From sequence record NZ_CP007673.1: a stretch of 25,054 nt of DNA; one strand, 5' to 3'. The DNA is from a plasmid. Position 1 is the stretch's first letter; every line of letters starts with the position of its first letter. Positions 217 to 15,831 of this stretch are shown here, in pieces. The position numbers and the translations under genes are program-made. Under the pieces are notes generated by a model, which worked only from the letters and a program-made list of their open reading frames with translations, made no database searches and was not told the origin of the DNA.

Positions 217-344
217 TTTTGAAATTGAAATTTAAGGAATGTCAGTCATAATTAAAAAAGGAAAACATTTTTATGACACCTTGAAATGAATTGATAAGAA
301 TAGAAAAGTTTACAAAAGGCAATATGGAATATATACTAAAAGTA

Positions 345-406
345 ACAAGAATTTCGTTTGTAAACGCACCAAACCCCGAACTATTGGCCGTAGTTCGGGG
401 TTTTTT
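345..406 (+). ncRNA. Candidate antisense RNA (RNAII/SprA1AS-like) of type I toxin-antitoxin locus 1
   Basis: There is a promoter with -35 TTTACA at 309-314, a 17-nt spacer and -10 TATACT at 332-337. Positions 344-370 (aacaagaatttcgtttgtaaacgcacc) are a direct repeat of 509-535 and are therefore complementary in trans to the toxin start-codon region. A 10-bp-stem intrinsic terminator with a T-run lies at 374-406 and could serve both strands. Confidence 0.4.
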
Positions 407-430
407 GGTGAATTGACTTAGTCGTCTATG

Positions 431-526
431 CTATTTTTTATCGCGTTTATGGAGCCAATAACCAAATAACGTGACCAGACAACCACTAATTACTGTTGTC
501 ATGATGTGAACAAGAATTTCATTCAT
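431..526 (-). CDS. Fst/PepA1-family type I toxin, 31 aa (MNEILVHIMTTVISGCLVTLFGYWLHKRDKK). It is below the 60-aa cutoff of the ORF track.
   Basis: The RBS GAGGAGGTG lies 6 nt upstream of ATG on the minus strand. The product is a single TM helix with a KR-rich C-terminus and resembles Fst/PepA1 (VISGC...YWL). An extended -10 promoter (TGTTATAAT, minus strand) lies near 578-586, and the 5' UTR contains the palindrome GACGTCAAcTTGACGTC. Confidence 0.6.
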   Translation of the reverse strand: MNEILVHIMTTVISGCLVTLFGYWLHKRDKK

Positions 527-874
527 AAATCGCACCTCCTCTCTACGTCAAGTTGACGTCTGAGAGATAGACGACTCTAACATTATAACAAATCTCTCCT
601 TCCATAAAATAACATGAAAGCCAAAAAGTATTTTTATGTACTAAAGACAAAAAACTACAAAAGATGGGATAAATGATGTTTGGCAATCAAAGATAAGAAG
701 CTACAAAATATGTTATCAAAGAAGGCTATCAAGATATTCATTTTCTCAATTTTGGATTGGCGAAAAGAAATCATAACTGAATAAAGATACAAAATAGTTG
801 TTGATGAAAAAATAATGAAAACACGTCATTTAGGGAAATGTATAAAAGATGCATACCCGATATCGTTGATAAAA

Positions 875-5513: not shown

Positions 5514-5531
5514 TTTAGGGTGTGATTTTAT

Positions 5532-5879
5532 ATGAGTTATGAAAATACTTGTGATGTGATCTGTGTACATGAGGATAAAGTTAACAATGCTTTAAGTTTT
5601 TTAGAAGATGATAAATCTAAGAAATTACTTAACATTTTAGAAAAAATTTGTGATGAGAAGAAATTGAAAATCATATTATCTTTGATTAAAGAAGATGAGT
5701 TGTGTGTTTGTGATATTTCTTTGATATTGAAAATGAGTGTTGCTTCAACTTCACATCATTTAAGGCTTTTATATAAAAATGAGGTACTTGATTTTTATAA
5801 AGATGGAAAGATGGCATATTATTTTATTAAAGACGATGAAATAAGAGAGTTTTTCTCTAAAAATCATGAGGGTTTTTGA
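5532..5879 (+). CDS. cadX: ArsR/SmtB-family metalloregulator CadX
   Basis: The protein is 115 aa with the metal-binding motifs CVCDIS and CDVICVHE and an HTH (SVASTSHHLRLL). It lies immediately downstream of cadD. Confidence 0.85.
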   Translation: MSYENTCDVICVHEDKVNNALSFLEDDKSKKLLNILEKICDEKKLKIILSLIKEDELCVCDISLILKMSVASTSHHLRLLYKNEVLDFYKDGKMAYYFIKDDEIREFFSKNHEGF

Positions 5880-13813: not shown

Positions 13814-13825
13814 ATATTGAGCTGA

Positions 13826-13866
13826 CTTGCCCTAAGATTTTATAAAATCTTAGGGCAAGTTTTTTC
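13826..13866 (+). terminator. Intrinsic terminator
   Basis: cttgccctaagatttt / aaaatcttagggcaag is a 16-bp stem followed by TTTTTTC. Confidence 0.8.
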
Positions 13867-14119
13867 TTTTTTCTTATCTTGATAAAGTAGTATTTTCAAT
13901 TTGTGATTGGGGTGATGATTTTCTAGATACAGTTAAAATTAATAATCATAGATAATGAGAGAACCTACAATTATCATAAGTTTTCACCTAAAAAGGATAT
14001 ATTAAAGTTTTACAAATCTTTAATGCACCTTTTAGAGTGTTTTTAAATCTATTCTTTAATAGACTATAATATTCACTATTTATTACACCGTTTTTTCTTT
14101 AGATTAATGAATTTAGGTG

Positions 14120-14160
14120 ATGATTTTGAACTGCGTTTCTTCTTTTGTCTTGATACTATA
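14120..14160 (+). other. Third pC194-type dso-like sequence, with an intact CTTGATA motif
   Basis: ggtgatgattttgaactgcgtttcttcttttgtcttgatactataaaaaacg resembles 5870-5915. Confidence 0.45.
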
Positions 14161-14287
14161 AAAAACGAAGTTATATAACATAAGACGACTTATCGGAAGT
14201 AGATATGCTTGTATATTCACAGATGGTATAATAATAGAGTCGCCTATCTCTCAGGCGTCAATTGACGAAGAGAGGAGGTGCATTACT

Positions 14288-14380
14288 TTGCTAATCATTT
14301 TCGTTCACATCATAGCACCAGTCATCAGTGGCTGTGCTGTTGCGTATTATACTTATTGGCTTAGTAAACGCAACAAATAA
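14288..14380 (+). CDS. PepA1/SprA1-like (Fst-family) type I toxin, 30 aa (MLIIFVHIIAPVISGCAVAYYTYWLSKRNK)
   Basis: RBS GGAGGTG lies 7 nt upstream of the TTG start. The peptide is nearly identical in pattern to S. aureus PepA1 (..FVHIIAPVISGC...YWLS.RN.K). An extended -10 promoter TGgTATAAT lies at 14224-14232. The ORF is below the track cutoff. Confidence 0.6.
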   Translation: MLIIFVHIIAPVISGCAVAYYTYWLSKRNK

Positions 14381-14407
14381 TTAATAGGCGACTTTATAAG
14401 CCAGCAT

Positions 14408-14473
14408 CGAAAAAATCCCCACACTACTGCAATAGTGTGGGGATTGGTGCATTAATTGTTAATCATTTTCGTT
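14408..14473 (-). ncRNA. Candidate antisense RNA (SprA1AS-like) of TA locus 2
   Basis: The minus-strand promoter has -35 TTGCAT (complement of 14504-14509) and an extended -10 TGTTATAAT (complement of 14480-14488). Its 5' region is the complement of 14458-14473, which is a direct repeat of 14291-14304 (taatcattttcgtt) and so is complementary to the toxin start region in trans. A 13-bp-stem terminator lies at 14414-14445, with a T-run on the minus strand. Confidence 0.4.
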
Positions 14474-14561
14474 ATATAAATTATAACACTGGTTAGTAGA
14501 GAAATGCAAAAACTACTGTTTGCGACAGAAAACTATGGAGGGTTACTGTGGTTGTTGAGCT

Positions 14562-15731
14562 TTAACACATTAATAATTCATTATACAATTCTCGTCTTTC
14601 TTGATTGGATTTATTTCCAAAGTTAGTATTATTATACCAATTTATAACGTTTTGTATAGAAGTGTTAGAAGCATTCTTATTATAGGTGAAATACCCAGAT
14701 AAATAGGAAATATAATCAATTCTTGATGGTTCTCTTAGACTATTGATATCAATAAAGTTCAAGGCATCTTCTAAGCCGTTTAATGTCATTTTAAAACACT
14801 TTCTTAATTGATCGGGCTCTAACTCATTTAAAAAAGATCCTTTGGCATCTGACGGGATGGGACTGTAATTTGAAGTATGATTTTTTTTACCACTCACTAT
14901 TTCAAAAGCAGAATTGAGTGTGGCTAAAGGTATAGAGACCTCTGTATTTTTTTGTATAAATAGATGGTCAAGTCCGGCCATTTCCAATCTATCTCTAAAA
15001 ATGTTGGAGTATTCTTTATAAAAATCCAAGCCTTTTATTTGTAATTTAGTGAGCTTCATTTGAAGCTCAGGAACTCTACTACCCGCCAAATTTAGAACGT
15101 CAAACCATTCAATTTGTTCTTCACCAGATAAGTCTTGAGCATAGTTAATGGTATAAAAATAATTAAAAAATTTGGTGCGTATTTGTCCTAGAATAGATGA
15201 TACAGAGAATTCTGCTAATTTCGGATTGAATCTAAGATACTCAGTATAGACCTCAGGATCTTTATTGTATAAAACACCAACAGGTATTTGATTTTTACTT
15301 GGCTTTTTTTCTTTTAAATTGACAAATTTCCCTTTAGTTAAATCTAGCGCTATTTCTTGTATTGATTCATCATTTGAATAAGCTTGATAATTCGTTGAAA
15401 TTCTTTGTTGCCCATCTATCACACTTAGACTACCTTCATTTAATTCTTCTATTTCAGTTCTACTTAATAGCTTTACGTGGGGCATCCCCTTACTTTTAGG
15501 ACCAATTCTATTCATTGAAATAGGAGAAACCGGAGCAAAACCTCCTAATTGAAAATTGTATAAGTCTATTTTCTTTTCGGCTGTCCAAGATAAATCGCGC
15601 TGAAAGATTGGCATAATAACTTGACCTGAATCCACATCAGAACATAATTGGTTAATTGATTTTTGGATAGTTTCTTTGGTAGGATCATTGAATGCATTTT
15701 CATTTAATTTTTTATTTAATCTAATTGACAT
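14562..15731 (-). CDS. Solo DUF262 protein (ParB/Srx-like NTPase domain with a DGQQR motif, GmrSD N-terminal-domain-like). No DUF1524/HNH partner is present.
   Basis: MPIFQRDLSWT and SVIDGQQRIST are the two DUF262 signature motifs, and a later FDVLNLAGSRVPELQ block also matches. The ATG at 15731 has RBS AAAGGAG (the track's TTG at 15737 is less likely). The C-terminal 150 aa are Asn/Tyr-rich and lack His-Me finger motifs. Confidence 0.7.
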   Translation of the reverse strand: MSIRLNKKLNENAFNDPTKETIQKSINQLCSDVDSGQVIMPIFQRDLSWTAEKKIDLYNFQLGGFAPVSPISMNRIGPKSKGMPHVKLLSRTEIEELNEGSLSVIDGQQRISTNYQAYSNDESIQEIALDLTKGKFVNLKEKKPSKNQIPVGVLYNKDPEVYTEYLRFNPKLAEFSVSSILGQIRTKFFNYFYTINYAQDLSGEEQIEWFDVLNLAGSRVPELQMKLTKLQIKGLDFYKEYSNIFRDRLEMAGLDHLFIQKNTEVSIPLATLNSAFEIVSGKKNHTSNYSPIPSDAKGSFLNELEPDQLRKCFKMTLNGLEDALNFIDINSLREPSRIDYISYLSGYFTYNKNASNTSIQNVINWYNNTNFGNKSNQERRELYNELLMC

Positions 15732-15831
15732 ACTCAATAACTCCTTTTGCTGCTTGTTAATATAACGTTAAATCTAAGACGTCAAAAAGTCAATTATTTT
15801 TTAGCAGCGTTTTATAAATAGCGAAATATAA

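Follow-up and report, generated by a model that had tools for sequence, protein, structure and literature searches.

The interval at about positions 14172-14511 of the DNA analysed here, a 25,054-nt stretch of the plasmid record NZ_CP007673.1 (the whole of which is called the window below), is very probably a type I toxin-antitoxin cassette of the par family (Fst/RNA I-RNA II), complete and intact, that is carried by a resistance plasmid of Staphylococcus aureus, is silenced by an antisense RNA (RNA II), and is likely to act in post-segregational killing. That the window is plasmid DNA is seen from 100% matches with SAP055A, pN315, and further S. aureus plasmids. An earlier annotation made from the letters alone (the sequence-only reading) had proposed a second Fst-family type I toxin-antitoxin locus at this place, with a PepA1-like toxin and a convergent antisense RNA that pairs in trans with the Shine-Dalgarno (SD) and start region of the toxin mRNA. 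This core proposal is borne out by the match of the peptide to NF033608, the match of the locus to fstAT, covariation in 43 related loci, the energy of the predicted RNA-RNA duplex, and the transcript Teg8pl from pN315. Every testable sequence-level feature that defines the par/Fst group is present, except for a U-turn motif that is not universal.

The toxin open reading frame (ORF) extends over 14288..14380 (+), with a TTG start and the SD sequence AGGAGG at 14273-14278, 9 nt upstream, and it encodes 30 residues. Its translation, MLIIFVHIIAPVISGCAVAYYTYWLSKRNK, is identical to the peptide quoted in the sequence-only reading. The peptide scores 58.2 bits against NCBIfam NF033608 (cut-off 26), and RefSeq describes it, as WP_001791613.1, under the name 'type I toxin-antitoxin system Fst family toxin'. 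It carries the characters of Fst-family toxins, namely the PxxxG(C) motif as APVISGC, the conserved Trp as W24, and a charged C-terminal tail, KRNK. The closest solved relative is PepA1 (MLIFVHIIAPVISGCAIAFFSYWLSRRNTK; PDB code: 4B19), with 21/28 aligned residues identical (E = 5e-13); this corresponds to 75% identity, or 76% by MAFFT, and every difference is conservative. To describe the peptide as almost a copy of chromosomal PepA1, as had been done, is therefore an overstatement, and the two are better regarded as paralogues. The peptide strings themselves gave no match in the full-text literature.

Related loci were collected by a degenerate-pattern scan of one genome per species, which returned 44 loci, nearly all from staphylococcal plasmids or chromosomes; the resulting alignment A3 holds 43 cassettes in 41 distinct rows. 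The TTG start at 14288 is supported since the codon aligned with it is ATG, GTG, or TTG in the relatives. Overlapping alternative ORFs (14278..14364 on the plus strand and small ones on the minus strand) are unsupported, and the relatives keep the Fst frame only. Between the toxin -10 box and the antisense -35 box, majority-base conservation in A3 amounts to 0.7-0.9, and outside this segment it drops to ~0.45. Chromosomal copies with the same architecture occur in several staphylococci (L012, L014, L015, L019, and L026, on contigs of 0.4-2.8 Mb); no locus from an S. aureus chromosome was returned by the one-genome-per-species scan.

A minus-strand promoter faces the toxin gene at 14480..14509, composed of TTGCAT (14509->14504), an 18-nt spacer, and TGTTATAAT (14488->14480), just as the sequence-only reading had placed it, and it is conserved among the distinct loci: TGTTATAAT is kept in 32/41, TTGCAT in 29/41, and the 18-nt spacer in 39/41. 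RNA II, the antitoxin RNA predicted from this promoter, would be 64 nt long (14473->14410, minus strand), with a 28-nt unstructured 5' domain followed by a terminator hairpin. An RNA of 65 nt overlapping the 3' end of the toxin gene had been expected; the length is nearly the same, whereas the overlap lies in the 3' untranslated region (UTR) and terminator and not in the ORF, which ends at 14380. The existence of an antisense transcript, whose absence would have counted against the sequence-only reading, is documented for pN315, whose SAP007/Teg8pl cassette (pN315 5523-5864) is identical to this one at 342/342 positions and has the same toxin accession. In the RNA sequencing study of Beaume et al. 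2010 (PMC2873960, Table S1), Teg8pl is a 63-nt RNA on the minus strand of pN315 (5831->5768); it maps to 14478->14415 of the window, within the authors' ~20-nt precision of predicted RNA II. On the opposite strand, sense coverage is about 160x over SAP007, an old ORF call whose stop codon is that of the toxin ORF (PMC2873960).

The pairing of the two RNAs would rest on a direct repeat. The exact 14-mer TAATCATTTTCGTT occurs at 14292-14305 and at 14460-14473, for which the estimated chance expectation within ~400 nt is about 1e-3. It extends to 18 nt at 94% identity (14288-14305 / 14456-14473), and a second block, GGTGCATTA(C/A)TT, covers 12 nt at 92% identity (14277-14288 / 14446-14457); the full direct repeat amounts to 28/29 nt with one indel (14277-14305 versus 14446-14473). 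The repeat had been recognised before, but with its first copy one position off (14291-14304) and with a length of 14 instead of 28/29 nt. Its 5' copy (14277..14305, +), the equivalent of the DRa/DRb repeats of the par locus of pAD1, takes in the end of the SD sequence together with the start codon and codons 2-6, and RNA II is predicted to target it; the reverse complement of the 3' copy (14446..14473, +) forms the single-stranded 5' domain of RNA II. This 5' domain is predicted to pair with positions 14276-14306 of the toxin mRNA (RNA I), with a duplex energy of -30.4 kcal/mol compared with -8.3 ± 2.3 kcal/mol in 1,000 shuffles (z = -9.7).

The alignment A3 adds to this picture, as the non-coding downstream repeat copy follows the synonymous or near-synonymous changes of the coding copy. 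Such joint changes are seen in column pairs 192/375 (TT 25, CC 14), 193/376 (TT 32, CC 8, AA 1), 195/378 (CC 28, TT 12), and 189/372 (CC 9, AA 8, TT 12, plus 7 G:U-compatible), and the last 12 repeat positions are 99.1% pairable, compared with 83.9 ± 1.3% when partners are permuted (0/2000). Across 28 distinct loci, the mean predicted duplex energy is -31.2 kcal/mol for cognate pairs and -15.5 ± 6.9 kcal/mol for non-cognate pairs. Direct repeats that make RNA II complementary to the translation initiation region of the toxin, a feature of the par/Fst group, are thereby found here.

RNA I would be transcribed from an extended -10 promoter, TGGTATAAT (14224..14232, +), and TGnTATAAT stands at the same aligned position in 34/41 distinct loci. 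Convergent promoters, another par/Fst feature, are both conserved across the 41 distinct loci, with start sites that are predicted. A generic promoter/terminator scan detected neither of them, since both -35 boxes are weak; the minus-strand promoter in particular is omitted because TTGCAT matches TTGACA at only 3/6 positions. With its ends placed from the -10 box and the terminator, RNA I is predicted to be about 212 nt long (14239..14450, +), and it folds into a par-like architecture with a minimum free energy (MFE) of -76.8 kcal/mol.

In this fold, the 5' arm of an upstream helix, GUCGCCUAU (14239..14247, +), pairs with AUAGGCGAC (14384-14392) and sequesters the 5' end of RNA I; the underlying inverted repeat (14234-14247 / 14384-14397) had no place in the sequence-only reading. 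The helix (helix 1) has 9 pairs, with 95.4% of alignment cells paired and compensatory changes in 3 pairs. It is followed by a 5' stem-loop (14248..14274, +), in which CUCUC (14248-14252) pairs with GAGAG (14270-14274), occluding part of the SD sequence, and which encloses the hairpin CGUC/GACG (14256-14267). In these two helices (helices 2 and 3), 90.3% and 97.9% of cells are paired, and compensatory changes occur, for example from CUCUC/GAGAG to CUUCC/GGAAG in L016-L023, and the SD-sequestering 5' stem-loop and 5'-end upstream helix of the par/Fst group are both recovered in the MFE fold and by covariation. At the other end, a G+C-rich terminator hairpin of 14 bp (14414..14445, both strands) forms the perfect 3' overlap of RNA I and RNA II; this helix (helix 11) is 99.6% paired, with 3 compensatory pairs (CACACUA/UAGUGUG, CUCACUA/UAGUGAG, and CGAACUA/UAGUUCG), and it provides the shared bidirectional terminator of the par/Fst group.

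Taken together, the upstream helix, SD stem, inner hairpin, intra-ORF helix, and terminator are 90-99.6% paired, each with compensatory changes. The RNA I structure as a whole has 84.5% of cells paired in A3, compared with 34-52% when partners are slid; 23 pairs show double changes, and the covariation score is 0.213 compared with 0.138 ± 0.004 in shuffles (0/500). No such conservation is seen for helices 4-6, which lie around the start codon (51-83% paired), or for helix 10, an extension below the terminator (42% paired), and these are not claimed as parts of the structure.

The mode of action may be pictured as follows. The extended -10 promoter would drive an RNA I that runs from 14239 to about 14450 and encodes a hydrophobic membrane peptide of the Fst/PepA1 type, presumably toxic. 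RNA I would be kept translationally inert by its own fold, the upstream helix protecting the 5' end and the 5' stem-loop occluding the SD sequence. The convergent RNA II has the terminator hairpin in common with RNA I; its 28-nt 5' domain, which is free, would bind in trans to the end of the SD sequence, to the UUG start, and to the opening six codons, and so keep ribosomes from loading. By analogy with pAD1 par, RNA II would be the less stable partner; in cells without the plasmid, the toxin would then be translated, with death or growth arrest as the outcome, and the cassette would in this way stabilise its plasmid.

Several points weigh against this reading. The promoter of RNA I has no recognisable -35, either in the promoter scan or in the alignment of the 41 distinct loci. 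The 3' end of RNA I is uncertain because the U-tract of the plus-strand RNA is poor (UUGGUG), the T-run of the terminator being on the minus strand only. The YUNR U-turn is missing from the terminator loop of RNA I, which reads CUGCAA; this motif is present in pAD1 and is not found in all homologues (PMC7472228), and kissing-loop initiation as known from pAD1 may therefore differ here. The peptide remains below the threshold of Pfam Fst_toxin PF13955 (13.9 versus 36). The covariation statistics are inflated by kinship among the loci, and the structure that was scored was taken from one member of the alignment. No published demonstration of toxicity, RNA-RNA binding, translational repression, or plasmid stabilisation was found for precisely this variant. 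Finally, the antitoxin of the chromosomal homologue SprA1/SprA1AS is present in an excess of 35-90-fold, and post-segregational killing has been doubted as the role of that system (PMC7472228); therefore, the biological role of the present cassette could also differ.

This last point leads to the first of the other explanations, in which the same device has a different role: it would act as a stress-responsive or cytolytic-peptide module like SprA1/SprA1AS, with toxin made when the antitoxin drops under acid or oxidative stress and possibly with lysis of host cells, and not in plasmid addiction. Such a role is possible, if somewhat unlikely. It agrees with the 75% identity of the peptide to PepA1, including the PxxxGC motif and basic tail, with the reports that PepA1 and PepA2 are cytolytic and their antitoxins stress-responsive (PMC4885055, PMC7472228, PMC6393315), and with the chromosomal copies of the same architecture mentioned above. 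However, the present copy is plasmid-borne, is found on about 1,290 staphylococcal plasmids, often in two copies (50/62; PMC10135026), and moves as a discrete unit between differing flanks.

It is a good deal less probable that RNA II acts mainly through its perfect 3' overlap with RNA I (14410-14450), so that the toxin mRNA is cleaved by RNase III and decays, as is the case for SprG/SprF or TxpA/RatA, with pairing at the ribosome-binding site (RBS) being secondary. A whole-molecule cofold does put the stablest duplex in the terminator overlap (about 41 bp, -79 kcal/mol by duplexfold), and overlap-dependent degradation is documented for SprF1/SprG1 (PMC4885055). Nevertheless, the overlap is held within two hairpins of very high stability, and this explanation leaves the co-variation of the downstream repeat copy with the SD and start region without an account. 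That the cassette is a decayed or silent remnant, a functionless ORF with repeats hitch-hiking on a successful plasmid, is extremely improbable: some relatives are indeed inactivated (L042-L044 by TGG->TAG; L012 and L028 by loss of the promoter and 5' UTR) and the RNA I promoter here is without a -35, but this copy retains intact its ORF, SD sequence, two promoters, full set of helices, and two repeat copies, transcription of both strands is known from the identical copy of pN315, and the compensatory changes across the 43 loci point to structure and pairing being under purifying selection.

The cassette has close counterparts among known systems. The founder of the family, par of pAD1 from Enterococcus faecalis (Fst; RNA I/RNA II), has the same convergent promoters, shared terminator, and DRa/DRb repeats (PMC7472228, PMC4147584), as well as the SD-sequestering 5' stem-loop, the 5'-end upstream helix, and RNAs of ~210 and 65 nt. 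All par landmarks listed in the review of Weaver 2020 (PMC7472228), namely convergent promoters, shared terminator, direct repeats, SD-sequestering stem-loop, and 5'-end helix, are present in the window. Unlike pAD1 par, the cassette has the staphylococcal PxxxGC motif, a basic and not an acidic C-terminus, no YUNR, a UUG start, and a host of another genus.

In SprA1/SprA1AS of an S. aureus pathogenicity island, which encodes the closest solved toxin, the antisense RNA is encoded in cis and works in trans, at the RBS, by means of 5' domains that do not overlap. The predicted pairing and the covariation are in line with a repression of this type here, and the feature is common to the whole par family; pairing in trans through the direct repeat, which had been called the defining mechanism of SprA1AS, is rather the DRa/DRb mechanism defined for pAD1 par and found family-wide (PMC7472228, PMC4147584). 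Beaume et al. 2010 (PMC2873960) remark that Teg8pl is about 80% repeated beside the tnp gene of the chromosome, at the place of sprA1. SprA1/SprA1AS sits in the chromosomal island next to transposase genes, whereas the present cassette is carried by a plasmid, and its repeat, which sets the specificity, differs from that of SprA1/SprA1AS; nor does the cassette encode the PepA1 sequence. Therefore, being plasmid-borne, with a peptide 75% identical and a different specificity repeat, the locus is not sprA1 but a paralogue. SprA2/SprA2AS (PepA2) has the same cis-encoded, trans-acting design, and its orthogonality to SprA1AS was shown by experiment (PMC6393315); it differs by a more distant peptide and its location in the chromosomal core genome.

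Fst-like systems have been recognised on staphylococcal plasmids since 2009-2010 (Weaver 2009; Kwong 2010; Jensen 2010, cited in PMC4885055) and are routinely annotated on pMW2, pN315, and pLAC-p03 (PMC8545097). The Fst-like systems of pSK1, pSK41, VRSAp, pMW2, and pLAC-p03 belong to the same family and to the same kind of theta-replicating resistance plasmid. The experimentally tested pSK1 system reportedly stabilises its plasmid, according to work by Jensen from 2010. The 'pSK1' of PMC3543317 is an unrelated E. coli construct.

A paralogous cassette, locus 1, lies at 321..590 on the minus strand and encodes the toxin MNEILVHIMTTVISGCLVTLFGYWLHKRDKK, with its own direct repeats, terminator, and convergent promoter. 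Searched with nhmmer and a profile of the cassette, the window contains exactly two copies, at 14224-14510 (+; locus 2, the cassette described so far) and 590-321 (-), and neither this profile nor a six-frame motif scan revealed a third. The whole cassettes are 78% identical, in agreement with the earlier view of two related but distinct Fst-family systems on one plasmid. The 5' UTR palindromes had also been said to be shared with locus 1 in inverted orientation, and homologous sequence is indeed present at 540-590 (-); the structure of this region is common to both loci, with compensatory differences (GCC...GGC versus GUC...GAC). Two Fst copies per plasmid are common, being found in 50/62 Fst-bearing plasmids of methicillin-resistant S. 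aureus (PMC10135026). On pN315, Teg5pl and Teg9pl (PMC2873960) are the toxin and antitoxin RNAs of a second cassette, which is 93% identical to locus 1.

The two cassettes are predicted to be orthogonal: the cognate 5'-5' duplexes of loci 2 and 1 have energies of -30.4 and -33.5 kcal/mol, and the cross pairs, at -10.5 and -12.2 kcal/mol, are at background. Experiments have shown a parallel independence for SprA1/SprA2 (PMC6393315) and for par-pAD1/par-EF0409 (PMC7472228). Pairing of the subfamily closest to PepA1 (L013, L025-L027), which serves as a proxy for sprA1, with locus-2 RNA I gives a modelled -13 kcal/mol, near background; judged on these proxy loci, cross-talk with the PepA1-like subfamily is likely to be absent.

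In the locus-1-type members L042, L043, and L044, the conserved Trp codon TGG is replaced by TAG (A3 columns ~249-251), which cuts the peptide to 23 aa. In L012 and L028, the toxin promoter and 5' UTR are missing (A3 columns ~106-165), and the ORF and antisense side are kept. In the Staphylococcus simiae locus L031, TTCGTTCACATCATGGCCACAGTTATCAGTG lies directly beyond the antisense promoter (~1700-1796; A3 columns ~440-535); its resemblance to the start of a second Fst-type ORF suggests tandem cassettes. Cassettes that equal staphylococcal ones exactly or almost exactly were also met in assemblies labelled Nonomuraea, Mesorhizobium, Moraxella, Streptomyces, Lentzea, and Halovulum (L007-L009, L018, L029, L039, L040, L042-L044, and others). 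These are mostly on short contigs, the contig names of Mesorhizobium and Halovulum indicate ~1x coverage, and staphylococcal contamination is most likely.

At 14431..14331 (-), the locus matches the Rfam model RF01797 (fstAT) with 88.5 bits, the gathering score being 72. Locus 1 matches at 386-483 (+) with 49.5 bits, below the gathering score, and therefore goes undetected in a default Rfam scan. Both matches begin in the terminator loop, pass through the U-tract, and go on in antisense along the 3' half of the toxin ORF. The match at locus 2 thus lies downstream of the RNA II terminator, with an overlap of ~22 nt with the RNA II defined by promoter, terminator, and Teg8pl. The model marks the locus correctly, but for the antitoxin RNA it appears to sit on the wrong side of the terminator.

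With a 461-bp region as query, megablast returned 1,290 plasmid records, 1,289 of them from Staphylococcus, in which the ORF is annotated as Fst family toxin, WP_001791613.1. Around the locus, similarity of the window to pN315 is restricted to 14124-14511, so that the flanks differ between the two plasmids: on pN315 they are genes for an ArsR/SmtB-family regulator and an oxidoreductase, and here a hypothetical protein and a GmrSD_N/DUF262 protein. On the right, both the conservation among loci and the identity to pN315 stop at 14511, two bases past the antisense -35. On the left, the cassette edge (14172..14200, +) carries the 13-mer ACTTATCGGAAGT at 14188-14200, that is, at -51..-39 of the predicted RNA I start; conservation across loci starts at ~14172, with none upstream (alignment A4; A3 columns 61-80). 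The 13-mer is kept in most PepA1-like cassettes and absent in the locus-1 subfamily, and the window holds no second copy of it, near matches being at chance level only.

A sigma-70-like promoter match, TTTAAA-17-TATAAT (10/12), is found at 14042-14070 (+), ~170 nt upstream of the cassette in a non-coding stretch of 425 nt (13814-14238). The region upstream of the cassette is not conserved among the related loci, and no conserved product of this promoter was identified. On the other side, the gene at 14562-15737 (-) converges on the cassette and encodes a protein of 391 aa with a GmrSD_N (DUF262) domain (44 bits), for which the PADLOC hits are weak (SspE, HEC-06, and PDC-M55C). The protein adjoining the toxin-antitoxin cassette may be defence-related.

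The locus is thus correctly identified and already known: it is a textbook module of the par/Fst addiction type, annotated in RefSeq and present on >1,000 staphylococcal plasmids, with its antisense RNA in the N315 transcriptome. Its importance is largely limited to correct annotation. The boundaries of the toxin mRNA and the antitoxin RNA are without annotation in public records, and the coordinates given here are better than those of the fstAT match. On a more speculative and rather unlikely view, both cassettes would be deliberately orthogonal portable units (with edges at ~14172 and 14511), each addressing a different segment of a mosaic multi-replicon plasmid, and ACTTATCGGAAGT would be an unrecognised regulator-binding or recombination site of the unit; if this were true, any recombinant or deletion derivative would still have an addiction module that works. 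For the curing of blaZ/cad/ars resistance plasmids, it is relevant that both cassettes are predicted to be orthogonal and that cross-talk with the PepA1-like subfamily is likely to be lacking.

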